A DNA stretch of 44,056 bases. It comes from a virus. Its lineage: Duplodnaviria > Caudoviricetes. The position numbers and the translations under genes were made by a program. A model generated the notes under the pieces. The model saw only the letters and a program-made list of their open reading frames with translations. It searched no databases and was not told the DNA's origin. The stretch is from the IMG/VR virus record IMGVR_UViG_3300030119_000303, positions 1 to 44,056 of that record; one strand, 5' to 3'. Position 1 is the stretch's first letter. Each line of letters opens with the position of its first letter. Shown here one piece after another: positions 7,325 to 37,593 of the stretch.

Positions 7325-7723
7325 ATGACTAATTCAGCATTAGATGCGCTTAAAAATAAGACTGCTGATAACGCAGAACCTAGCGAAGGTTGGCAGGTAT
7401 TTAATTGTGCTAAGCAAGCTACCACATTAGTTACTCCAGCAGGTAAAAGAATTACATTTACTGGTGGGCGATGCTTAACTAAGGATGCCGATGTAATAGC
7501 TTATTTAGATGAAGTTATCGCATCCGGAGTTAATTCTATCACTAAAGGTGATACTATCTCTGATGAAGAAGCTATCGACCCAGATATCCGTTTGCGACTT
7601 AAGATTCGTGAAGAAGAGAAGGCTAAGTTAATGAAGACTTTAGACTACTCTACTGACATGGGTAGTACACCACAAACTGGTAAGTCTGCCAAAATGGCTA
7701 CCTCAGCCGACACAGCTAGTTAA
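7325..7723 (+). CDS. Hypothetical virion-module protein
   Basis: GAGG RBS; lies between the MCP gene and a terminator. Confidence 0.75.
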   Translation: MTNSALDALKNKTADNAEPSEGWQVFNCAKQATTLVTPAGKRITFTGGRCLTKDADVIAYLDEVIASGVNSITKGDTISDEEAIDPDIRLRLKIREEEKAKLMKTLDYSTDMGSTPQTGKSAKMATSADTAS

Positions 7724-25107: not shown

Positions 25108-26397
25108 TTAATAAGAGTTAAGTTCTTCCTGAGTTAAATACTTCCAATCTACTAATCCATCCTCACCGTCAAATAATACTTTCTTCTTAGGTAAGTAGAT
25201 TGTCCTGCCGCTATTAGTCTCTTGTACTGCTATTTTATCTGCCAGTAACAATGAGTTGATAGCTTCTATTACTTGTTCCCGCTTATCAAAGTCTTGGCTA
25301 ACAACCTTAAAGATTTCTTTAAATGTAGCCATACCTTTGTTAGTGATAAACACAAGTATCTTATGGGTAGCAGCACTATTCTTACTTCTACCAAATTCAC
25401 CTAGTGCTCTAGGCATAAGCTGTTCAGCGAAAGTAAGGACAGTATTAGCCTCAATAACTACATCCTTTGTTATCTGCATAGATAACTTACTTGCTGCTAT
25501 AACCATAGTAAGTTTTATAAGATGCTGGAATCTACGGTTACTATAATGTTCAAATCTAGGGTCATCAATACTATCCCACTTAGTGTAGATAATTTTCATT
25601 AACTCCCTAGCCTCATCTGTTAGTAACATCTCACCATGTAATTTATCTTCTACATCTGAAAAGAATTGTACTAAATCACCTTTAAGAGATTCATCTGGAG
25701 GTAATGGGAATGGTATCTCTTTACCGCTAGGGTCACTGTATATAAGTAACAGCCTGCTAAAGAAACCTTGCCCTATAATCTCTGGAGGGAAAGCTGAGTT
25801 AAGACCTACTTGAGTATTACCGCCTAGTATATTAATGGTAGGGTTATTAATATAAATACTATCGCTGTTCTTTAGACGGTAATCAAATACTCCATTGTAA
25901 TCCCATAACTCACCTAGTATAGAAATGAAGTCTACGTTGTTATAGCCTATAAAGTTATTAAACTCATCAGCTGTAACAAAAGACTCCGCAGGTGCTTTAT
26001 TAGATGCCGCTGATTTCTCACTAGCAGAGTCTTCATCTAATGTTAAGTTATCTAGGATTAAATCTACGTCACTTGTATCTTTACCTTTATTTAGGAATTG
26101 CTCTGCTAAGTCAGTTAGGTACTTTTCCTGTCTAGTCTTCTTTGCTGCAAAGTAATCATACCCAGTATCTCCTAATAACTTAGCGCCCATCTTGATACCT
26201 GTTGATTTCTTAGTACCTGGGCTACCTATTAATAAGACATACATATTAGGGTATATATTAAAGTGACCGAATCTAAAATGTACTTTTCTACCTAATTTTG
26301 CTGCAAGGCAACTTAACGCAGTCCACCTATGAAATAACTTCGGACACTCATTATCGTCAGTATATTTAAGATAGGTAGCTATGTAGTCTATAGCCAT
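25108..26397 (-). CDS. DUF3987-like P-loop ATPase (putative replicative helicase) with C-terminal winged helix
   Basis: YPNMYVLLIGSPGTKKST Walker A, ADEF Walker B, GFFSR arginine finger, HLIKLTM; no primase domain attached. Confidence 0.8.
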   Translation of the reverse strand: MAIDYIATYLKYTDDNECPKLFHRWTALSCLAAKLGRKVHFRFGHFNIYPNMYVLLIGSPGTKKSTGIKMGAKLLGDTGYDYFAAKKTRQEKYLTDLAEQFLNKGKDTSDVDLILDNLTLDEDSASEKSAASNKAPAESFVTADEFNNFIGYNNVDFISILGELWDYNGVFDYRLKNSDSIYINNPTINILGGNTQVGLNSAFPPEIIGQGFFSRLLLIYSDPSGKEIPFPLPPDESLKGDLVQFFSDVEDKLHGEMLLTDEARELMKIIYTKWDSIDDPRFEHYSNRRFQHLIKLTMVIAASKLSMQITKDVVIEANTVLTFAEQLMPRALGEFGRSKNSAATHKILVFITNKGMATFKEIFKVVSQDFDKREQVIEAINSLLLADKIAVQETNSGRTIYLPKKKVLFDGEDGLVDWKYLTQEELNSY

Positions 26398-26412: not shown

Positions 26413-28854
26413 TTATTCTGTTTCTGCCCAATACTTGGCATATCCTTTATCAGTATGCTGGCCGCCTTTAACAGAAGCTGGTACTACGAAAGAACGTACT
26501 ATGTTATCGTAACCTTTAATAGTTACTGGTACTTCCATACGTTCTCTGACCATCTCCATTAAATAACTATGACCTAATCTATACTGCCCTATTATGGAAT
26601 CATGAACTTGTGCTATTAACTTGAAATTATCGCTATACTTAGGATTGATTGCTATATCTTTATATACTGTAATAAATGATTTATTTAGTGTCATTGCATT
26701 TAAGGATTGTGGTGGGTGTGCTATGTAAGCGTTAGCCGCTGTCTTAGACTTACTAGGGTCTTTAAAGCACCTTCTAGTCCAAGCACCGCCAGCTTCGGTA
26801 TACATATGTTCCCATTCAGAGTTCCATTTATCTTTAATAGAGGGGTTTTCTAGCATGGTTTTAGTTTCAGTCCAGTTATGGTGAACTGCTTGAGAGCGTA
26901 GTAATCCAGTAAGTAATACTTCTTTAATAGCACCTTTATGAAATACAGCTCTTATTTTGGGGTAAGCCTTGTGGAATTGTTCTAACAGATGTTCAGCCAC
27001 CTGCACAGCAGAGAAGAATTTATTTAAAGCTAGTAACTCTTTAGCTAACCATATATGAGCAACACCCATAGTATCTATTAATACGTAGGCTCCCATGTTA
27101 TAGTTAGCACCGTGGTTAACAGGTTTAGCTAATTGTCGTAATGGTTTATTAAGTACTTTGCCTGCCTTAACATCGAATATATCTTCAAAGGGTATACCGA
27201 AGAAAGCACTAGCATTAGCACTGTGAAAATCAGGTGAGTGTTCAACCGCATTAATAAGGTTAGTATCACCACTTAAATAAGCAGTGTCCCGCGATTCAGC
27301 TTGTTCTAAGTCTACTTCAAATAAAGCAAAGCCTTCATCTGCTACATAAGTAGACTTAACTGCACCACCTCTAGGTATATTCTGTATGTTAACTCCACAC
27401 CAAAAAGCATGTTCTCTACTAGCTTGTCTGCCTGTATCAGTGCCATGTGGGTTAATAGAGAATAGTATTCTATCTTTATTCTTTTCTTGGAACTCTTTAC
27501 CTACTGTTATATATGTAGATAGTTCCTTACGAATCTTACGTATGTTTAATACATAACCTAATATACGTTGATTAATAGGACTTCTATCCATAGCCTTCTT
27601 TAGACTTTTTTCATCAGCAGACTTTAAGTCACCGCAACCTAATATAAATAATAGTTGCTTCATTTGCTTAGGCGAACTTACATTAAATTCAGAGCCTTCG
27701 GGGGTACTTAATACTGTATCTAATCTAGCTTGGTATTCTGCACGTATACTATCACCTTGTTTATAGGCTTCTTCCATCCTACTAATGTCACGCTTTATAC
27801 CACGTAACTCACACATGTGGCTAGGGAATGTTAGCGGGAACTCATCTTTATAGTTCTTAATAGCCCAATCTGGCATTTCTGCTAACATGACAACACACGC
27901 CATAACAGTACCCCAAGTATCAAGAGCATTATAGCGATAGTATTCATACAAGTCATTTGTATCTGATAAGTCTTTCCAGTAATAAGCCTCACGAATAAGG
28001 AAGCTGTTAAGGAAACCTAAGTCTTTAGGTAACTCTGCATACCACGAATGGAACATCATAGCAGTATCATATTGGTAATTATATACAGGTGCATTGTACC
28101 TAGCAAAATAAGCTATGTCATACTTACCATTCTGCATTACCTTAGCTGCTTTAGTGTCCCAATTAAACTTACGCATTATCTCTACTGCAAACATACTATC
28201 TATAGCTAATACATAAGTCTCAGTATGGTATCCGCTAGGCTCACTGCTATCTTCCCACAGGCCAGTATAAGATAAGCACTTAATACGGGTGTGGTCTTTA
28301 AGAGTCTCAACATCAATACCTATTAACAGGCAGTTATCTTGTTTAAGACATGCTAAAGCGGACTCGTAGTTACGTTCATCTATTACATGCCATTTAAATT
28401 CAGGGGGTTTAAACCAATTATCAGGATTAGATAACTTAGATATATGACGGGTTGCCATAAACTTGCCGTAGCTAACAGTAGCTAGTTGTTTGAGGGGGTT
28501 AATGAATACTATCTCTATACCCTCTATATTAAAATAACTACCTGCATAGTTAGACAGACTAGGTGCAGCCCGCTTATCCCATTTAAGTAGTAATCTCAAC
28601 AAAGGTACAGAGGTAGTAAACACTTTAGTTAAGTGCTTGCTCTTACAGTGTAGAGTAAACTGAGTAAGAGTACTAATAGCAGTAGTGTTTACTATAACAT
28701 GAGTACTACCAACACAAGACTTCAACATAGGTAAGTATGCTTTATCATGCCCAGTACCCCAAAAAAGAACACTGCTATTTACAGCTACAGCATTCTTTTT
28801 CTCAGCGCGCATCTTAGCTAACTTATCTTTCATAACTTGTAGTTGTGTACTCAT
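26413..28854 (-). CDS. polA: Family A DNA polymerase with 3'-5' exonuclease
   Basis: Exo I IDVET, Exo II QNGKYD, Exo III YNALD; TDTGR, NIQNIP; motif A DLEQAESR, motif B RQLAKPVNHGANY, motif C QVHDS. Confidence 0.95.
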   Translation of the reverse strand: MSTQLQVMKDKLAKMRAEKKNAVAVNSSVLFWGTGHDKAYLPMLKSCVGSTHVIVNTTAISTLTQFTLHCKSKHLTKVFTTSVPLLRLLLKWDKRAAPSLSNYAGSYFNIEGIEIVFINPLKQLATVSYGKFMATRHISKLSNPDNWFKPPEFKWHVIDERNYESALACLKQDNCLLIGIDVETLKDHTRIKCLSYTGLWEDSSEPSGYHTETYVLAIDSMFAVEIMRKFNWDTKAAKVMQNGKYDIAYFARYNAPVYNYQYDTAMMFHSWYAELPKDLGFLNSFLIREAYYWKDLSDTNDLYEYYRYNALDTWGTVMACVVMLAEMPDWAIKNYKDEFPLTFPSHMCELRGIKRDISRMEEAYKQGDSIRAEYQARLDTVLSTPEGSEFNVSSPKQMKQLLFILGCGDLKSADEKSLKKAMDRSPINQRILGYVLNIRKIRKELSTYITVGKEFQEKNKDRILFSINPHGTDTGRQASREHAFWCGVNIQNIPRGGAVKSTYVADEGFALFEVDLEQAESRDTAYLSGDTNLINAVEHSPDFHSANASAFFGIPFEDIFDVKAGKVLNKPLRQLAKPVNHGANYNMGAYVLIDTMGVAHIWLAKELLALNKFFSAVQVAEHLLEQFHKAYPKIRAVFHKGAIKEVLLTGLLRSQAVHHNWTETKTMLENPSIKDKWNSEWEHMYTEAGGAWTRRCFKDPSKSKTAANAYIAHPPQSLNAMTLNKSFITVYKDIAINPKYSDNFKLIAQVHDSIIGQYRLGHSYLMEMVRERMEVPVTIKGYDNIVRSFVVPASVKGGQHTDKGYAKYWAETE

Positions 28855-28858
28855 GTTT

Positions 28859-29125
28859 CTATTTCTCCTCGTTAGTTGTTACTGCAATACACTCAGCAGT
28901 TACTTCATCCCAGCTACCTAAAACATGCCTTATCAGCTGTTCAGCTTCCCGTAACTTCTGTAACTCTTTTAAGTAGTCTGGGCTAACAGCTACAAGGTGC
29001 TTTATGTTTCGCCAGTCACTATTAATACCACTAAGTGAACTTTTCATACTAGCTAGCTGGAACTTTTGGAAGTTTCTAGTACGTGCTACCCGTTGCTTGT
29101 TACTAGGTCTATGATACTTTTTCAT
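28859..29125 (-). CDS. Hypothetical protein
   Basis: Coupled ORF with basic N-terminus. Confidence 0.7.
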   Translation of the reverse strand: MKKYHRPSNKQRVARTRNFQKFQLASMKSSLSGINSDWRNIKHLVAVSPDYLKELQKLREAEQLIRHVLGSWDEVTAECIAVTTNEEK

Positions 29126-29129
29126 TAGC

Positions 29130-29351
29130 CTATCCCTTATTCCTTTGTCTCAGTTTCTTCTTCCTCTTAGCAAGTTTCTTCTTACGTTGCCTACTCTGGT
29201 AAGTATCAACAGGCTTAGGTGTGCTACTAGGTGCAGCAGCATCTGTGTTGATAAGGCTAACAGTTAATAAAGACTTAGTAGCACCATCAGTAGTGTTGTG
29301 TGTTAGTGTATTGCTTAACGCAGCCAACAAATGAGCTTTACTTATCTTCAT
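29130..29351 (-). CDS. Hypothetical protein with very basic C-terminus (start revised to 29351)
   Basis: AAGGAG RBS before the ATG at 29351; ends RQRKKKLAKRKKKLRQRNKG. Confidence 0.65.
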   Translation of the reverse strand: MKISKAHLLAALSNTLTHNTTDGATKSLLTVSLINTDAAAPSSTPKPVDTYQSRQRKKKLAKRKKKLRQRNKG

Positions 29352-29427
29352 TGTTAGTCTCCTTCTGATAAACAACTCCGTACATTGCAGCTCTAATACA
29401 CATTGTAATGTAGTTTAACTTAAACAT
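29338..29427 (-). CDS. 29-aa small ORF missing from the ORF track (MFKLNYITMCIRAAMYGVVYQKETNNEDK)
   Basis: CGGAG RBS; overlaps the start of the next gene. Confidence 0.5.
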   Translation of the reverse strand: MFKLNYITMCIRAAMYGVVYQKETNNEDK

Positions 29428-29486
29428 GGTAGTATCTCCGTGGTTATGTTCCTTAGTAAAGACAGCTATAAATAACAATCTTTAAT

Positions 29487-29514
29487 AAAGAAGCCCCGTA
29501 ATTAAACAGGGCTA
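29487..29514 (-). terminator. Rho-independent terminator after the SSB-like gene
   Basis: Minus strand AGCCCTGT-TTAATT-ACGGGGCT followed by TCTTT. Confidence 0.7.
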
Positions 29515-29537
29515 CTCACTTAAATTACGATAAGCTA

Positions 29538-29975
29538 TTAGCCTAGTGTAACCTGTTTAATCTGCGTGTAGAACTTATCAGGATCGTTCTTGTCCTTACG
29601 TAAGGTAGTAGTTACCGCACATTCAAGGTCTTTAACAGATGCCACAATCTCAGACAGATTAGAAGTACCAAGCGCTTCACCAATAGGCTTACAGATTGCC
29701 TTTAAGTTACCCTGTCCGTACTCATTAGTTAAGTCGCACAAGATAGAAGTTTCATCACCTTCCACACATTTCTTGTCTTCGCTTACTTCTTTAGCAAGCT
29801 CTACGGTTTCAACCATGACAAGCTTAATTTCTACGCAAGGTTTTTCGTTAACTTCTTTCTTATCCATAGTCATCTTAATTAAGTGACTGCCAGCAGGGAA
29901 AGGTTTAAACTCAGGTAAATCGTTTAAATCGTCTAGAGAGATGTCTAATAGTTCGTCGATGTTAATATCTGACAT
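29538..29975 (-). CDS. Single-stranded DNA-binding protein (DUF669-like OB fold)
   Basis: FKPFPAG.H motif, beta-rich, acidic; directly downstream of the Sak4-like gene. Confidence 0.7.
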   Translation of the reverse strand: MSDINIDELLDISLDDLNDLPEFKPFPAGSHLIKMTMDKKEVNEKPCVEIKLVMVETVELAKEVSEDKKCVEGDETSILCDLTNEYGQGNLKAICKPIGEALGTSNLSEIVASVKDLECAVTTTLRKDKNDPDKFYTQIKQVTLG

Positions 29976-30152
29976 AATAATATTCCTATAAATGGATTAA
30001 TAAATTAATGGATTGATAAATAGATGTATGCTATTGATTGCTATACATGGTTATTGCACACTAGGTATTAAACTTAATATGCAATATAATATAAAGCAAG
30101 ACGTATACTATTGTATAGTTCGGTATACCAGCGAACTTAGCGCACGGAGAAA

Positions 30153-31130
30153 CTAGGTTTTAGTTCTAGCCCGTAAAGCAGCTAACTTATCTTTTACTGA
30201 GTCATTAATAGTAGCGCTACTGTTAGTAGTGGTAGCAGTATCGGCAGACTTAGTATTAGTAGTAGTGGGCTTAGTGGTCGTATCTTTCTTAACATCTTTT
30301 AAACTCTTGTTCTTTTTATCCGCAGAAGTAAATATAGGAAGTAAGCTAGTTACTCCGTCTTTCTGCAAGTCAACACTAGTACGTGAGCCAGACAGTACAG
30401 TAGTACTATCAGTTGTACTAGAACTAAATACATGTTTCTTAAGCTTACGTTCAGCGTATACTACATGTCCGAAGTACTTAGCTAAGTTACGTGCAAAGTT
30501 ACGAGTGCCGCCAAGAGGTACTATAATAGTCTTACCAGATTCAGTTTCAGACTCAACTTCGTGGGTAATGACTACTACCTTATACTTAGCTTGCTGCAAA
30601 TAAGATAAGAATCTGTCAAGCAACATACCAAGGTGCGCCCAATCATCATAATTAAGCTTATAATCATCCGGCTGGTTACGGGTAATCTGCGCAATAGCAC
30701 TGTTAGTTAACTGAGTAAGACTGTCAAATACTACAATAGTATCATCAGGTAAGTTGTTAACATCCACAGTAGTGAATAACTCGTCGTCAGATAAGTCACT
30801 GTCTTTAGCAGTCTTAGTACACAGCATACAATTAACTTTACCGTGTTCATCACATATCTTAGACTTACCTTTAACAACCTTAAGTGCAGTCTCGATACCG
30901 ATAGGAAAGTCCCTTGTGTCAGGTATGCTTACTAACTGTATACGTTCCTGCCATTCAGTAGGTAGTTGTTCTAACACTTCACTACCGTTCTCGAAGTCAA
31001 ACCATATAAGGTTATACTCTTCAGCTAACTTACCAGCACCCAATGATTTACCAGACTTAGGTGCACCATATATAATGACTTTAGGGTAAGTCTTGTTTTC
31101 AGCTTTACGACTAGCTATAGTCTTAGCCAT
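30153..31130 (-). CDS. Sak4-like AAA_24 ATPase (recombination/annealing)
   Basis: IYGAPKSGKS, FDFENG, VVFDSLT and VVITHE motifs; T-rich disordered C-terminal linker. Confidence 0.85.
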   Translation of the reverse strand: MAKTIASRKAENKTYPKVIIYGAPKSGKSLGAGKLAEEYNLIWFDFENGSEVLEQLPTEWQERIQLVSIPDTRDFPIGIETALKVVKGKSKICDEHGKVNCMLCTKTAKDSDLSDDELFTTVDVNNLPDDTIVVFDSLTQLTNSAIAQITRNQPDDYKLNYDDWAHLGMLLDRFLSYLQQAKYKVVVITHEVESETESGKTIIVPLGGTRNFARNLAKYFGHVVYAERKLKKHVFSSSTTDSTTVLSGSRTSVDLQKDGVTSLLPIFTSADKKNKSLKDVKKDTTTKPTTTNTKSADTATTTNSSATINDSVKDKLAALRARTKT

Positions 31131-31136
31131 TGTTAA

Positions 31137-31418
31137 TTACTCCTTAGGTTCTACTGCTATTCTAAACAAAGGGTGAGTGTTATTAGATATAATCCAGCCA
31201 GTATAACCAAACACTTTTATATCTCCTTCCACGTTTATGTTAGGTATTGCTACTTTAGGGTAACTGCATGTGCCTCTTAATAAGCTGGCGGCAGTAGCAT
31301 TAACATAGACAGTAATGTCAGGATTAACTGCGTGCATACTATTAGCTACAGCTATTTGCATACGTATGTCGCCCAATAACTCCTCGGTTTTAGTGCGTAT
31401 ATAAGTTTCCATACTCAC
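31137..31418 (-). CDS. Hypothetical protein
   Basis: GAGGAG RBS; GTG start overlapping the upstream stop. Confidence 0.7.
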   Translation of the reverse strand: MSMETYIRTKTEELLGDIRMQIAVANSMHAVNPDITVYVNATAASLLRGTCSYPKVAIPNINVEGDIKVFGYTGWIISNNTHPLFRIAVEPKE

Positions 31419-31753
31419 TGGTTATCTCCTCTTTGCATAGCATTAAGCTTATCGGCTGCACTAGTATTGATAGTAGCTATAGCTTCATCAGCAGGTACTT
31501 CATTAAGCCTAAGAAGGTCAGTTTGTGCTGGGCCAGCTATATCATGAATAAACTTATCCCATACCCACACTAATGCTAAGTCCTCACGATAGTTAGCTAG
31601 CATCTTCTTAGGCAACCACGTGTTAGTAGGTATGCCTTGCGCATCAATAAACTTAAATAGCATGGCTTTCTCTGACTCTGCTACTACTTCGTCAAACGTA
31701 ACACAGGTATTAGATTCCTGCACTGTTTCTAAGCCCATAATTTTAATGTTCAC
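31415..31753 (-). CDS. Hypothetical protein
   Basis: ESEKAMLF...WLPK pattern; C-terminus resembles the Sak4 tail. Confidence 0.7.
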   Translation of the reverse strand: MNIKIMGLETVQESNTCVTFDEVVAESEKAMLFKFIDAQGIPTNTWLPKKMLANYREDLALVWVWDKFIHDIAGPAQTDLLRLNEVPADEAIATINTSAADKLNAMQRGDNQ

Positions 31754-32759
31754 TTGTTTTCTCCAGCTGTCTTTCTATTAAGGTTTCGAAGTCAACATTA
31801 AATTGGTACTTACCTTCATCCTCTTTAACGTACGCTTCAACTAAGTTAGTGTAAGGTTTAGTAAGCTGTAAGTTACTATGCTCACATATACCTAAGTATT
31901 CGCAAGGACGACCGAAAGAGTAACAACTTTCTCCATGCATAGGGAATAAGTCAGACTTATGATATAGTTCTAACTTCTCTATATCTAACAGCATTTCAGA
32001 TAACCACTGCGCTCGCTTAGATAAAGACTTCATAAAGTGCATAGGTTTATACTCATAGCTACGAGTCTCATACACTAAATAATAAACACTATAACTAGAC
32101 AGTTCTGGAAACAGTTCATCTAATACTACACTGTAACCAATAGCTTGCCCGCTGTTCTGGAACATAGCAGGTTGAGCAATACCACTACTAGTCTTAAGTT
32201 CTAGTACTATTATCTCACCTGTTTCCTTATGTCTAAGTACTACATCTAGGAAACCACGATAGCGATAGCCATTAGGTAATATAATATTAAAAGATAATTC
32301 ACATGCTGGCTTACCCTTGTAATACACAAGTTCGTAGTCACTTATTGCACCTAATGTATATAGGTCATAGAACTTTTTAACAGCATAGATAGCCCGATAA
32401 TAAGACTTATTTTGTCTTTCGGTAGCAGCATCTAAATCTATTTCCCATTCAAGGAAACAATCTAATACTGCTCTATCAAATGACTTACCTTCTATAACAG
32501 ACTGTATACCTACACCAACTACGCTACCAAAGTTAAGAGTAACTTCTGATTCCTGTTCTCTTTCAGGGTCAGTAGATACAGAATTACTTTTAAGCTTATA
32601 CAGTTCGTACTTACGGGGGCAGGCATGTAATAAGTTACGAGAAGAGTGAGACAGTAATTTAATACGCGGGTCTATCTCACCTTGTAAATCTATTACCTCA
32701 ACTTCTTCATCAACTACTTTGATATCAAGCTGGGTATCTAGGAATGAAAAATCTGGCAT
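31743..32759 (-). CDS. PD-(D/E)XK exonuclease, Cas4/AddB-like with four Cys (Fe-S)
   Basis: LSHSS..L..CPRKY, GFLD...ELKT, Q...Y, and C-terminal C-x6-C-x5-C. Confidence 0.85.
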   Translation of the reverse strand: MPDFSFLDTQLDIKVVDEEVEVIDLQGEIDPRIKLLSHSSRNLLHACPRKYELYKLKSNSVSTDPEREQESEVTLNFGSVVGVGIQSVIEGKSFDRAVLDCFLEWEIDLDAATERQNKSYYRAIYAVKKFYDLYTLGAISDYELVYYKGKPACELSFNIILPNGYRYRGFLDVVLRHKETGEIIVLELKTSSGIAQPAMFQNSGQAIGYSVVLDELFPELSSYSVYYLVYETRSYEYKPMHFMKSLSKRAQWLSEMLLDIEKLELYHKSDLFPMHGESCYSFGRPCEYLGICEHSNLQLTKPYTNLVEAYVKEDEGKYQFNVDFETLIERQLEKTSEH

Positions 32760-32769
32760 TGTTAAGTTC

Positions 32770-33129
32770 CTAATGTGTTAACACTATTAAAGCTACTCTG
32801 GTACATAGCTCACGGTTAAATTTAAGGTCATACTTCTTGCCCATATTATGTGCTACTATTCTAGCTAACTCACCTATAGCATAACTATGGCACATACTAG
32901 ACAGTAACATTAACTTACTATCCTGCTTTAACTTATCAAACTTATCGTCTTCTAAATCAAGAGGCATATTACCTTCATTAGTTAGCCAGTCTAATATAAC
33001 TTTGCTATCGTGCATATAATTAATATACATGCTATGCTGGTGGTACATATAGAAGGTAATGAAAGTAGTAAGTGTATGAGGGGTACGAGCAAGCTTAAGT
33101 TCTTTTACCCGCTGGGATAACTCAGACAT
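32770..33129 (-). CDS. Hypothetical protein
   Basis: ORF within the minus-strand operon. Confidence 0.65.
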   Translation of the reverse strand: MSELSQRVKELKLARTPHTLTTFITFYMYHQHSMYINYMHDSKVILDWLTNEGNMPLDLEDDKFDKLKQDSKLMLLSSMCHSYAIGELARIVAHNMGKKYDLKFNRELCTRVALIVLTH

Positions 33130-33138
33130 ATTAAATGC

Positions 33139-33438
33139 CTATAAGTCATCAGCTGTAATAGACTTAAGTGCCTTCTTAGGTGCTTTCTTCAACTGAGAAG
33201 TAGATATTTCAGTCTTAGAAATAGACATCTGAGCCTTAACTATAACAGCTAATTCTTCATCTGTTAATAGTGTAGCTTGCTCAGGGTCTTTCTTAACAAT
33301 GGTGTGAATAGTTTTGAGAGCAGAACGCATCTCAGGATGGTTATCTTTGAAGTGAGTATCTAACTCTACTAACTTCTCTTGAATACGGAAGTCTACTTTA
33401 GAGTCACTTAATGATAAGGTTGGTAGTGAATCAGCCAT
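33139..33438 (-). CDS. Hypothetical protein
   Basis: CGGAG RBS; helical, ends SITADDL. Confidence 0.75.
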   Translation of the reverse strand: MADSLPTLSLSDSKVDFRIQEKLVELDTHFKDNHPEMRSALKTIHTIVKKDPEQATLLTDEELAVIVKAQMSISKTEISTSQLKKAPKKALKSITADDL

Positions 33439-33458
33439 TACATTTCTCCGTGCAATTG

Positions 33459-33701
33459 CTAAAGGTTAATAACATTATGGGTTAAGCTACCCACTATGTA
33501 AAAAGTTATCTTAGTGCCTTCTATCTTGTGCATTAACTTAGGCCGTATGCCTGCTTCTAATGCTAGATACTTATAGGCTTTATCTAACTTCTTTTCTTTT
33601 CTCACTGCTTCTATTAACCTATTATGCATATCAACTGGAGCCTCTACCGTAGCAGTAGAGTTATCTCTAATAGTGTTCCATAACTTCTGATATTTACGCA
33701 T
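33459..33701 (-). CDS. Hypothetical protein
   Basis: Basic 80-aa ORF; no obvious SD. Confidence 0.7.
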   Translation of the reverse strand: MRKYQKLWNTIRDNSTATVEAPVDMHNRLIEAVRKEKKLDKAYKYLALEAGIRPKLMHKIEGTKITFYIVGSLTHNVINL

Positions 33702-33724
33702 AAGTAATGATAGCTAACAATGAG

Positions 33725-33763
33725 AAAAGAAAAAAAAAACGGTAGCTAACTTAATAGCTACCG
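33725..33763 (-). terminator. Strong rho-independent terminator
   Basis: Perfect 9-bp stem CGGTAGCTA/TAGCTACCG with 6-nt loop and a 10-nt T run on the minus strand. Confidence 0.9.
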
Positions 33764-33789
33764 CTTATTAGATAACCTGGGAGAGGTTA

Positions 33790-34530
33790 TTAAAGGGCTT
33801 CTAGTATAGAGCTTTCGCTTGTTTCTTTGAAGGTAGTAATCTTCTCAGCTAAGAACTCGATAACTTCTGCGAATTCTTCAAGGTTAGCTTGCTCAGCATT
33901 AGCGTAAACACCAAGTTGCTCTTCAAGTACAGACAGAACTTTCTTGTTAGTCTTAACAGGCTGTAGCTTAGCGTTGAATAGCTTAGCAGCAAAGGTAACT
34001 TGCTCAAGAGTCTTATCGGTAACTTCTTGCATAACTTCAATGTAGTCCTTAACAAAGCCTTCCCAGATTTCTTTAGGAATACCGCCACCTTTACGGCTAG
34101 CTTTAGGCATGTTAGCAATGAAGTCCCAGCTAAGTTGGTCATAAGGGAAGTTAGCAGCATTAAGCTTTTCGTCTTCGCTAATAAGGCTACGTGCTTGAGT
34201 CTTAATAACTTCCGTTACCGCTTCACGTAATAGCTCAGCACCTTTACCACCTTCTTCAATGATAGAAAGAACACCATTAATAGTAGGGATAGGCAAAGGC
34301 ACAACTAAGGTATCACGCTTATATTCAATACCGCTGTCATCTTTCTGCTTACGGAAAGTAAATTCAGTTGGAGTAGGTACTGTCTCAACTTTCATCTGAC
34401 TACGTACTTCTGCAACGATAGTAGCTAACTCTTCCTTAGTAGGGTTCTCAGCAGGAATTATTTTAAGTTCTTGCTTTTCTACAACATTGTTGCCAGTTTC
34501 TACGGTAGTAGTATCTTGTTGCTCAGACAT
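33790..34530 (-). CDS. Hypothetical protein, probably highly expressed
   Basis: Own promoter, AAGGAG RBS and terminator; capsid-like codon usage. Confidence 0.85.
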   Translation of the reverse strand: MSEQQDTTTVETGNNVVEKQELKIIPAENPTKEELATIVAEVRSQMKVETVPTPTEFTFRKQKDDSGIEYKRDTLVVPLPIPTINGVLSIIEEGGKGAELLREAVTEVIKTQARSLISEDEKLNAANFPYDQLSWDFIANMPKASRKGGGIPKEIWEGFVKDYIEVMQEVTDKTLEQVTFAAKLFNAKLQPVKTNKKVLSVLEEQLGVYANAEQANLEEFAEVIEFLAEKITTFKETSESSILEAL

Positions 34531-34646
34531 GTTAATGTCTCCTTAATTAAGTGGCGTCTTATTTAAATAATGTGCGCCGTTAAACAATAAGTAATTAATT
34601 ACTCACTTAGTTTGTTTGGGATACAAGTTCCCCTAAATGAATAATC

Positions 34647-34674
34647 ATTATGCCATAGGTTACAAAATCGTCAA
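34647..34674 (-). promoter_or_regulatory. Sigma70-type promoter
   Basis: TTGACG-N16-CATAAT with extended -10 TG and an upstream A tract. Confidence 0.7.
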
Positions 34675-34717
34675 GAACTTTTTTACTCTTAACTAGTTAG
34701 TGTGTTTATTTTAGTAA

Positions 34718-36601
34718 CTAATAACCATCATTAGCTTCTAACTTACCTTTAAAGAACTCCGCTTTCTCAGCTAAGGTATCACCCTTAATCTTCTGTGACT
34801 TAATACCTTTAACAAAACTATCAGGTTCACATATAACATAAAGCTCTTCTCTTGCCCTAGTAACACCAGTATATAACAGTTCCCGCTGTAACATAGTAGC
34901 GTGAGTTTGGTGCAGACATAAGAATACTTTACGCCATTCACTACCTTGTGATTTATGTACAGTCATAGCATAAGATAGCAATAGATTGTTAACTTCACTA
35001 GCAGACTTAAGTTCTACTGTACGCTCAGTATCTTTAAGTTTAACCTTAATAATATGGGAGCACTGCGTAGTTCTTTCTTCTACATCAGTATCAGCTAAGC
35101 TATCTAACATAGCATCTATATCTTGCTCTTCTTCTTCATCCTCTAAGCCAGCAGCCTCTGGGTCTTGGTTACAACCCCAATAATCTAAGAACCTACTAGG
35201 TTGCTGAGGCATCTTACCTAGGTACTTATGATTACGTTCTATTTCTATTATCTCGCCGTCTTCCCTGTCTACTAAGACATAGTCACCTACAGATAGATAG
35301 TGCTTATTAAACCCAGCTACTATCTCATGTGTTAACCTACCGTGCTTACGAGCAATGTGATTAGCTATACCCTTATTGAGTTCAATAGTACCGCAACCTT
35401 TATTATAAGGTATTAGTATTATGTCTTCATCAGGGTTATACGCATCATTATCATAAGCATTAGCAAAGAACTTCATTAAGATAATACAAGCGTTATCAGC
35501 ATTAAGTTTCTTCTTCCAAGGATGTAAGGTTAACTTACCTTCTGTTTTCCATTTAGGAAACTCTTTTACTGGTATAGGCTTACCTGATAATATCCTATGT
35601 GCTAACCTGATAATAGGTGACTCAAGTGCTTGCCTGTATACCTCAGTTAATTCTATTACTGGTAACTCTAGTAACTTATAACCTAATATAGCAGACCCGA
35701 ATACAGGAGGTAACTGGTTAAGGTCACCTATAAATACCCATATAATATCCTTAGGTAAAGCTAATACTATCTCTTTATATAACTCAACAGATAGCATAGA
35801 GGCTTCTTCTACTATTATTACCTTTAGACTAGAGGGTAGTTTATTGCTAGCATTCCTAGCTGGTTCAAACACCCTACTAACTCTCTTTTCCCCAGTCTCT
35901 TCGTTAATAATAGTCTTATCAACAGGCTGGTACTCAAGTAGTTTATGGGAAGTAATACAGTTATGCTTCATATCTTCCGACTGTACTTTACGTATGTTAT
36001 TAACAGCTCTTCTTGTGTAAGAGATAATAACAGCCCCAGGGGTACCGCTAGTAAGGTGCTTATGCGGAGCGTCTTCTGATATAGTAAGTACGCCAGCTAC
36101 ACCGGATTGTATTAAGTTATTAAGACCCCCCTTAGTAGCAGTTGTTTTACCAGTACCAGCAGCACCTATTAAGACACATGATTTACCTTTACCTAATGTA
36201 GTAACAAACTCTTCTTGTCTTTCATTATAGGTAATAACTTCACCGTTCATACCAGTAGTAGTATTAGCACCTAATGTTTCAGGTGGGGATATAGGTAATA
36301 CTTTATCCTGTGGTGGTATTTCTTCCTTCTCTTCCTTAAGCTTCTTTTCTTCCTTGTACTTAGCTAGTGCAGCAGCTAACCTATCCTTAGAAGATACTTC
36401 CTTTTCTGGTTTAGTCTTCTCTTCCGCTTGCTTATTAGCTAATGCTTTAGCAGCTAAGTTAGCCCGTACCCTTTCCTTAATAGACAGTGCCTTATGCTTA
36501 GCTAACTGAGGTTCTTCTTTAGGTACTTCTTTATTAGCCTCAGCTTCTTCCTTAGCTTTCTGCAATTTACGGGCTTCTATTATAGCTTTAATATCAGCCA
36601 T
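34718..36601 (-). CDS. RecD/Dda-like SF1B DNA helicase
   Basis: GAAGTGKT, VEEASM, IGDLNQLPPV, LTEVYRQ, YAMTVHKSQGSEW and LLYTGVTRA; ~120-aa charged N-terminal extension. Confidence 0.93.
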   Translation of the reverse strand: MADIKAIIEARKLQKAKEEAEANKEVPKEEPQLAKHKALSIKERVRANLAAKALANKQAEEKTKPEKEVSSKDRLAAALAKYKEEKKLKEEKEEIPPQDKVLPISPPETLGANTTTGMNGEVITYNERQEEFVTTLGKGKSCVLIGAAGTGKTTATKGGLNNLIQSGVAGVLTISEDAPHKHLTSGTPGAVIISYTRRAVNNIRKVQSEDMKHNCITSHKLLEYQPVDKTIINEETGEKRVSRVFEPARNASNKLPSSLKVIIVEEASMLSVELYKEIVLALPKDIIWVFIGDLNQLPPVFGSAILGYKLLELPVIELTEVYRQALESPIIRLAHRILSGKPIPVKEFPKWKTEGKLTLHPWKKKLNADNACIILMKFFANAYDNDAYNPDEDIILIPYNKGCGTIELNKGIANHIARKHGRLTHEIVAGFNKHYLSVGDYVLVDREDGEIIEIERNHKYLGKMPQQPSRFLDYWGCNQDPEAAGLEDEEEEQDIDAMLDSLADTDVEERTTQCSHIIKVKLKDTERTVELKSASEVNNLLLSYAMTVHKSQGSEWRKVFLCLHQTHATMLQRELLYTGVTRAREELYVICEPDSFVKGIKSQKIKGDTLAEKAEFFKGKLEANDGY

Positions 36602-36603
36602 TA

Positions 36604-37593
36604 CTAACTCCTCTTACTTAAGTTGTATGCTATCTTAGCTTTAAGGTACTCACCCTTAGTAGCATAGTTAATTTGTTTAGGTTCTTCTGCCGGAGCGCTA
36701 GCTATTACATCATTAACTAACTTATCGTTAGCTTCAATAGACTTCTTAGCAGCTGCAGCCTTCTCTAAGCTAGAAGTACTCATAGACATAGATAACTGTG
36801 CATCTAAATCTAGTAGTGAAGAACCAAGTATATTGATTTGGTTATTGATACCTTCTTTAAGACAATCCATTACCTCAGAATAATGTAAGCTATCTAACTC
36901 TAAGTTAGTTTCACAGTGTTCCTTTATCTCTTTAAGAGTTGTGGAATCTACATTAAATATCTTCTTAGGATTAAAGCAGTACCTAATAGCTTTCTTCCAT
37001 TCTTCTACTCTATCAGCAGGGAAGTTACTAGCCATTGCTGCCCAATCTGCTATTAGTGTTACGTACTGAGGTGCCTGCTTATCAGACAATACTAAGTAAG
37101 TAAGCTTATTCTGTACAGCCATTAACTTAGCATGGTCAGTAAGAGATGCTTGCTTATTCTTAAATTCCTCAATATTATCTCGCCAAGCCCGCACCCAATT
37201 ATGGATGTTATCTAAGCTACTATTATCTACGTTAACTACAAACCTAGGTTGTTTAAACTTAGGGTGTTCAATAATAGCTGTCTGCTCAAGTGAAGCTACT
37301 AGTCTGTTAATGGTGTTAGCTATGTAAGACTGACCTCTAACAGAATTCCACTCTAGTGTTACTGGTACTCGCCAAGTTACCTTACCTGATAAGTTTAATA
37401 AGGCTAGGAATAGTAAGTATGATTCCTTATTACTACATTCGCCTTTAGCATATAACTTATAGGTAGCTAATAACTGTTTCTTGTTAGCAGCAAAGATAGG
37501 ATGAATATATCCACCTTGAGAACTAACATTTAACTTACTAAACTCAGGCAGTATTATTTTTATACCTGATATAGCACAGGTTATTTTAGCCAT
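36604..37593 (-). CDS. Hypothetical protein upstream of helicase
   Basis: 329-aa ORF coupled to the helicase; function unknown. Confidence 0.8.
   Translation of the reverse strand: MAKITCAISGIKIILPEFSKLNVSSQGGYIHPIFAANKKQLLATYKLYAKGECSNKESYLLFLALLNLSGKVTWRVPVTLEWNSVRGQSYIANTINRLVASLEQTAIIEHPKFKQPRFVVNVDNSSLDNIHNWVRAWRDNIEEFKNKQASLTDHAKLMAVQNKLTYLVLSDKQAPQYVTLIADWAAMASNFPADRVEEWKKAIRYCFNPKKIFNVDSTTLKEIKEHCETNLELDSLHYSEVMDCLKEGINNQINILGSSLLDLDAQLSMSMSTSSLEKAAAAKKSIEANDKLVNDVIASAPAEEPKQINYATKGEYLKAKIAYNLSKRS

Follow-up and report, generated by a model that had tools for sequence, protein, structure and literature searches.

Phage and bacterial single-stranded DNA-binding proteins (SSBs) normally recruit enzymes with an acidic tail of their own. 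In phage HK620, the loading of Sak4 on SSB-coated DNA requires the six C-terminal residues of the SSB (PMC5928155), and the DUF669 SSB of phage Healer functions together with an AAA protein (PMC13687109). For eukaryotic RPA, the RPA32C-binding motifs of UNG2, XPA, SMARCAL1, TIPIN, and NEIL1 are basic motifs in disordered extensions that bind an acidic SSB surface (PMC11387677). In this work, we analyzed a 44,056-nucleotide stretch of viral DNA (IMG/VR record IMGVR_UViG_3300030119_000303, positions 1 to 44,056; the whole stretch is hereafter called the window) and found a short basic helical motif on the tails of its polymerase (PolA), Sak4, helicase, and other proteins. The motif is real and family-wide and is apparently undescribed; no publication on it was found in the literature searched, the coverage of which stopped short of subscription journals. 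We tentatively propose, with a probability of roughly 0.4, that these basic helices dock on an acidic N-terminal arm of a phage SSB that has no C-terminal tail.

The locus resembles the Sak4-SSB pair of HK620 and the Gp63-Gp64 pair of Healer in having adjoining genes for a Sak4/AAA_24 protein and a DUF669-like SSB, with an exonuclease gene nearby (PMC5928155, PMC13687109). However, the SSBs of those phages have a long C-terminal tail, with an acidic tip in HK620 and as a flexible acidic region in Gp63, whereas the window's SSB has none. The Sak4 of HK620 is without a tail, whereas that of the window carries the motif. A P/Q-enriched or acidic-tipped C-terminal region, as given for Healer-type SSBs (PMC13687109), is not present in the window's SSB. 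Compared with the bacterial SSB C-terminal tip (DDDIPF), the window's SSB lacks the acidic-aromatic tail, and the flexible motif is basic and sits on the client proteins. The RPA32C-binding motifs are similar in that a basic motif is borne by DNA enzymes of unrelated families on an extension (the disorder of which we judge from composition and length variation in our case) and in the proposed logic, but they are eukaryotic, their receptor is a folded winged-helix domain, and their binding was measured (PMC11387677); the receptor proposed here is a 16-residue arm, and the likeness is one of logic. The C-terminal domain of lambda Red-beta binds both exonuclease and SSB (PMC6393309). Together with the SSB tip it offers a parallel in which one small element joins annealase, exonuclease, and SSB, although in Red-beta this element is a folded three-helix bundle.

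Copies and character of the motif in the window

The window is a complete podophage genome of ~43.7 kb related to PaP2, 119X, and PaMx41, in which the plus strand encodes the structural proteins and the minus strand those of replication. With its PolA as query, matches at 26–33% identity were obtained in 19 annotated phages (Aeromonas P5, EBPR podovirus 3, Polaromonas Tiera, and the PaP2/119X/PaMx41 group; Fredfastierviridae). The motif copies, the acidic peptides, the SSB, and the 99- and 246-amino-acid (aa) proteins described below are all encoded on the minus strand.

A first-pass annotation of the window had reported five peptides sharing a KDKLAxhRA-like basic helical motif on four proteins. 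All five translate from the minus strand as described, namely, in PolA at residues 8–17 (28804..28833; gene 26413-28854), in Sak4 at residues 312–321 after a T/K/S-rich linker (30168..30197; gene 30153-31130, PF13479), in a 112-aa protein (31430..31459; gene 31415-31753), and in the helicase at residues 41–50 (36452..36481) and 71–80 (36362..36391; gene 34718-36601), these two copies being 30 residues apart. The gene names given at that stage are backed by Pfam and PHROG matches for PolA (PF00476), Sak4 (AAA_24, phrog_124), and a Dda-like helicase (phrog_325), and the 112-aa protein has no family match in these two databases. We assigned two additional copies. One is at helicase residues 4–13 (36563..36592), which a profile of helicase and PolA tails ranks 6th in the window and which is the site of the first copy in most orthologues; the other, assigned by eye, is at the N-terminus of a 119-aa protein (33091..33120; gene 32770-33129).

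A pattern drawn from the motif copies gives 4 matches in the window versus 0.03 in shuffles, but this comparison is circular because the pattern was derived from those matches. For a fair test, a profile was built from 113 tails of Sak4 homologues, without the window's own protein and its 81% relative, and used to rank 13,019 ten-residue segments from the 50 proteins of the window. The Sak4 copy ranks 1st and the 112-aa copy 2nd, followed by the helicase copies at residues 41–50 and 71–80 (8th and 11th between them) and PolA (19th), with unrelated helices ranking in between.

The motif is read as a protein-level feature and not a DNA element because a 15-nt DNA pattern occurs exactly at only three places in the window, each in frame for the peptide, and in the orthologues the helix pattern is maintained by different residues; a DNA-level element was set aside on the same grounds. 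The 112-aa copy is private to this lineage, as none of 13 orthologues carries it and it is also missing from a 41%-identical relative, and it may be a recent copy of the Sak4 tail because the DNA of the two is identical at 40 of 84 bases.

Across the family, a sharp consensus does not hold; KDKLAxhRA is the spelling of this genome, and what recurs is a looser class of helically spaced hydrophobic residues (mostly Leu, Ile, and Ala) followed by Lys or Arg. A central Leu is present in all 113 profile windows, in part because of how the seed was built. The invariance of L316 in our Sak4 alignment (A4) is overstated, since the alignment omits 10 of the 119 listed homologues, including two without a clear motif (P0088 and P0110) in addition to eight with odd N-termini or redundancy. 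The motif peptides probably form helices, with a hydrophobic moment of 0.42–0.46, a net charge of +1 to +2, and a low mean hydrophobicity of 0.20–0.35, and F/W/Y account for 0–0.9% of their residues. The tails that bear them contain 1–2% F/W/Y/C and about 40% P/T/S/A. Together with the variation in length, this composition suggests the disordered termini proposed earlier. PIP boxes and other clamp-binding motifs require aromatic residues, and their receptor is a sliding clamp. They resemble the motif in being a shared terminal tag on replication enzymes, whereas the motif is without aromatics, and neither the SSB nor the 246-aa protein, the two proteins modeled, matched a clamp fold. A role as a degron was set aside on the ground that the motif is found internally as well as at either end. 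There may be a likeness to the C-terminal helix of PspA.

Conservation, gain, and loss among relatives

Relatives were collected from three scans of IMG/VR and three annotated regions, giving 162 loci in 121 genome groups. Ortholog counts are based on automatic start calls, with truncated open reading frames (ORFs) and near-identical copies of the window left out. Conservation is strongest in Sak4. Among 118 homologue tails, taken from the best 120 of 900 matches, 108 match the motif (shuffled mean 5.0, maximum 12). The same trend was found in more diverse loci (49/79 over threshold vs. 5.6 shuffled) and after clustering at 50% identity, where 74 of 126 representatives of at least 280 aa match (vs. 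14.8 shuffled; 24 of the 150 representatives were below this length and were left out). These tails and linkers vary in length from 18 to 178 residues.

For the helicase, 55 of 67 N-terminal tails match a post hoc pattern (vs. 14.7 shuffled). By a profile partly trained on these sequences, 43, 22, and 2 of 68 helicases have one, two, and three copies, respectively, and one has none; the tail lengthens as the copy number rises. PolA has an N-terminal extension of 15 or more residues in 36 of 83 orthologues, of which 24 match (vs. 4.3 shuffled). Profiles cross over between proteins to some extent. By the Sak4-only profile, 13 of 67 helicase tails score (vs. 1.7 shuffled). In the other direction, 39 of 76 Sak4 tails score (vs. 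5.4 shuffled) by a profile that had been refined on the tails of the helicase and PolA, though this profile was seeded from the Sak4 one and is not fully independent.

Several other proteins bear the motif in some lineages only. In the 119-aa family, 19 of 43 N-termini (window included) match a strict pattern, which the window's own copy does not. Seven of 57 exonuclease orthologues have the motif, some of them ahead of an acidic peptide described below, and in phage P5 it is found on the orthologues of a 329-aa protein and of a DUF3987 protein. The 99-aa protein (33139..33438) has no basic tail in the window, and its orthologues gain N-terminal extensions with one or two motifs in PaMx41 (gp41) and in loci L131, L135, L141, and L148; Tiera_038 is taken as another orthologue by position and likeness only, with no match in the ortholog search. 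In total, the motif has been gained repeatedly, at the N- as well as the C-terminus, in no fewer than eight unrelated families. A peptide that comes and goes in this way at the termini of non-homologous proteins, with no fixed tether length, probably behaves as a short linear motif. Thus, the expectation that the tails would be conserved in orthologues holds for Sak4, the helicase, part of the polymerases, and additional proteins in other genomes, but not for the 112-aa protein.

A tail-less SSB as the proposed hub

Directly downstream of the Sak4 gene, in an order kept across relatives, is a gene for a 145-aa protein with a DUF669-like OB fold (29538..29975). Its predicted structure (predicted local distance difference test, pLDDT, 88) is a single OB domain without an extra domain, and the SSB has no acidic C-terminal tail because the chain stops two residues past the last strand, which ends at residue 143; the consensus of 88 orthologues also ends at the last strand. 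The fold has 87 viral matches at E ≤ 0.001, many of them named DUF669, and the matches in the Protein Data Bank (PDB) are PrgE and SSBs. Only 3 of the 88 orthologues match PF05037, weakly, and the SSB alignment has no match among PDB sequences. From the fold and the position beside Sak4, this protein presumably binds single-stranded DNA (ssDNA) as an oligomer. It was found in all four distant genomes tested, and 362 homologues of it are available.

At the N-terminus, residues 6–21 form an acidic arm (29913..29960) that is highly conserved among the 88 aligned sequences (D19 in 88, P21 in 87, D15 in 86, D16 in 85, L10 in 84, and D11 in 79) and is modeled with short helices at residues 6–11 and 14–16. 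The SSB does not itself carry the basic motif (0/95 at either end), and no SSB is among the proteins with DIPF-type C-termini found in the family. The outgroups have a different layout. The Sak4s of HK620 and six other outgroups (212–245 aa) end right after the core, and in all seven the downstream SSB or gene at the SSB position encodes a long acidic C-terminal tail. In the family of the window, the layout is reversed, with a tail-less SSB and a motif-bearing Sak4.

On our reading, Sak4, the helicase, many of the polymerases, and further proteins that differ between lineages bear a basic, Leu/Ala-rich amphipathic helix on a variable tail; these helices would dock on the acidic arm of the SSB, so that SSB-coated ssDNA would gather the enzymes. 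The carriers are the usual kinds of SSB partner. Single contacts would be weak, with avidity supplied by the oligomerization of the SSB and of Sak4 and by the one to three helicase copies. The docking partner of the motif is inferred, and within the first-pass annotation's proposal of a common hub or of pairing with acidic motifs, it is the SSB as hub, along with such pairing, that fits the comparative pattern best. Most genomes would need no respelling of the motif because the SSB arm is near-invariant, whereas lineages with altered arms have dialects. This argument is post hoc and concerns two genomes, as in both Tiera and PaMx41 the SSB arms have diverged and three to four proteins share a spelling of their own. 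A complex prediction for two SSB chains and a 33-residue Sak4 tail (62-row alignments) scored 0.02 against a mark of 0.32, without folded controls, and counts neither way. If the proposal is correct, the phage reached an RPA-like logic independently, as an inversion of the bacterial SSB-tip logic, and gained a private interface free of competition from host SSB partners. It may also explain why some Sak4-SSB pairs require the cognate partner, which is relevant to recombineering tools.

A number of observations weigh against this proposal. The motif is not essential on every carrier because 47 of 83 polymerases have no extension and the Sak4s of L029 and L098 have no tail, and the Sak4-only profile matches none of 36 PolA tails. 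The six extra outgroups were hand-picked from 40 listed of 181 records, and the SSB-position genes of three of the six are annotated just as hypothetical. The arm may be conserved for self-assembly of the SSB instead, since in Healer Gp63 a contact with a neighboring subunit is predicted for the first 20 residues (PMC13687109). Concerted respelling of the motif across genomes is unsupported. Similarity within the same genome is not significant between Sak4 and helicase copies (p = 0.22, n = 64; p = 0.27 with all copies, n = 48) or between helicase and PolA copies (p = 0.08, n = 22) and is marginal between Sak4 and PolA (p = 0.02, n = 33), where the window's own pair ranks 1 of 33; protein identity predicts the spelling better than the genome does. 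The motif may even be a general physicochemical tag because ordinary helices score with the profile as well (capsid N-terminus, 14/38; C-terminus of the 329-aa protein, 17/66), as do sporadic tails of the late gene that follows the capsid gene (6 and 7 of 52), although none of 55 scaffold and 44 portal N-termini do. Finally, a lipid-binding discriminant of the HeliQuest type gives medians of 1.19–1.29, with 51 of 150 above 1.34; the motif thereby falls in or above the "possible" zone.

The main rival, which the first-pass annotation had not considered and which we regard as doubtful, is that the motif is a weak membrane-targeting helix; proteins that oligomerize on DNA would gain avidity and keep the replication machinery attached to the inner membrane. 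The helix of Noc is weak and needs nucleoprotein assembly (PMC4331003). Like those of Noc and MinD, the motif is a short, terminal, basic amphipathic helix with basic flanks past a variable spacer that would be weak alone; its tolerance of respelling, hydrophobic moment, net charge, and discriminant values are in line with such an anchor, as are the lack of concerted respelling, the sporadic copies on a late-gene product, and the presence of Phe in PaMx41 copies. However, changing any of three Phe to Ala abolishes Noc function (PMC4331003), whereas our motifs are nearly aromatic-free, low in mean hydrophobicity, and spread over many enzymes. The membrane reading also leaves the tail-less SSB with its conserved arm, the outgroup contrast, and the acidic peptides unexplained; if true, the tails would tether phage replication to the membrane throughout the family. 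It is unlikely that the receptor is instead a groove on another protein, filled by the helix much as MIM1 helices complete MIT bundles; candidates would be a helical bundle of the phage (the 246-, 80-, or 329-aa protein or the Sak4 core) or a conserved protein of the host. MIM1 of ESCRT-III, with the consensus [DE]xxLxxRLxxL[KR], has similar Leu spacing, basic flanks, and a terminal position (PMC12057046). The strict consensus was found in none of 222 tails (77 Sak4, 67 helicase, 36 PolA, and 42 of the 119-aa family), while a relaxed form matches 3 Sak4, 6 helicase, 1 PolA, and 14 of the 42 119-aa tails, the last versus 0.1 in shuffles.

The 246-aa protein (33790..34530), named earlier as an alternative hub, would be one candidate receptor under the groove reading; it rarely has the motif itself (3 and 2 of 80), and in its model (pLDDT 91) the C-terminal domain is a helical bundle. 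Its fold matches reach only Z ≤ 6.6 and cover residues 151–246, with one unnamed viral match; the match to ULK3 (4wzx_A, which we take to be an MIT domain) has Z 5.3, a root-mean-square deviation of 3.2, and 78 aligned residues, which is within helical-bundle noise, and no MIT domain was recognized in the phage. There is no solved relative by sequence, and look-alikes in the Atlas are below 0.8. It is the weaker candidate because it was undetected in the complete genomes of PaMx41 and Tiera, in a loose first look that can miss remote homologues, and these phages carry the motif on several proteins; among the four distant genomes tested, it was found in one, weakly. The 99- and 329-aa proteins are carriers themselves in some lineages, and the former, which also has no usable Atlas or PDB match, was set aside as a hub. 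We consider it equally improbable that the tails are non-specific stickers that weakly bind DNA, acidic loops, or each other and condense replication proteins without a single receptor. Low-complexity linkers, repeated copies, a loose consensus, acidic-hydrophobic peptides on at least four proteins, and other recurring end peptides in the family would suit such a role, but the most conserved positions are hydrophobic and the net charge is small, unlike a DNA-gripping tail, and the residue-level invariance of the SSB arm suggests a defined surface. The idea that these are common amphipathic helices arising by convergence, each serving its own protein (in oligomerization or stability) or nothing, accounts for the protein-specific spellings, the scores of unrelated helices, and the private, possibly duplicated 112-aa copy. 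It is very improbable given the repeated gain on at least eight families at both termini, the near-fixation on Sak4 and helicase, the absence from outgroup Sak4s, and the spellings shared inside Tiera, PaMx41, and the window genome.

Acidic peptides and other features of the family

In addition to the SSB arm, acidic-hydrophobic peptides were found on other replication proteins. The PD-(D/E)XK exonuclease (gene 31743-32759) has one at the N-terminus (32724..32753), and 29 of 57 orthologue tails match this pattern (vs. 4.2 shuffled). The helicase has one in an internal acidic loop at residues 494–504 (35090..35122), matched by 34 of 69 orthologues (vs. 4.0 shuffled), and a DUF3987 helicase/primase-like protein (gene 25108-26397) has one in a loop (26044..26070; 17/55 vs. 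2.8 shuffled). In the SSB-docking proposal, the peptides on the exonuclease and the helicase loop would be secondary sites for annealase hand-off, a helicase latch, or cross-links. An extended form, which we hold to be rather unlikely, is a two-part helix code, in which basic client helices would pair with acidic helices on the SSB, the exonuclease, and the helicase loop to build a multivalent replication assembly, and adaptors like Tiera_039 would plug host repair enzymes back in.

Other recurring end peptides were observed in the family. Tails of the host-SSB-like DDIPF type, which the phage SSB lacks, terminate 12 small accessory ORFs, namely, Tiera_039 (L037:7704-8141) and ORFs in L026, L030, L070, L071, L087, L093, L094, L106, L131, L141, and L151. 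Tiera_039 has a basic motif at its start and a DDDIPF-type end and might act as an adaptor that reaches the SSB partners of the host. A C-terminal [ST]xxDL is found on the 99-aa protein and many orthologues of the 80-aa protein (33459-33701), as well as on some orthologues of the 329-aa protein (36604-37593) in L010, L154, and L157. The small and large terminases (520-1161 and 1321-2901; orthologues in L184-L259) often share an N-terminal LLxSLGG-type peptide, which may be a tag of the packaging module.

For individual genes, the protein whose gene follows that of the major capsid protein (7325-7723) ranks 3rd in the window by the Sak4 profile, and a minority of its orthologues (L220, L224, L231, and L254) have a motif-like helix at the N- or C-terminus. 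The 246-aa protein is conserved, with many near-invariant basic and aromatic residues, and possibly binds nucleic acid. PolA has a conserved N-terminal region at residues ~28–150, ahead of the polymerase profiles (PHROG match from 151). An 81-aa ORF (29130-29375) ends in a very basic run and, among the first 35 loci, was found only in three near-identical ones.

The phage contig was binned as contig C13 in a 1.41-Mb bacterial assembly of 39 contigs. We assign no host because the contig sits in a bacterial bin and the relatives are binned with unrelated taxa. The window is terminally redundant because its last 30 bases recur near position 373; the redundancy spans window positions 1 to about 400 and about the last 400 bases.

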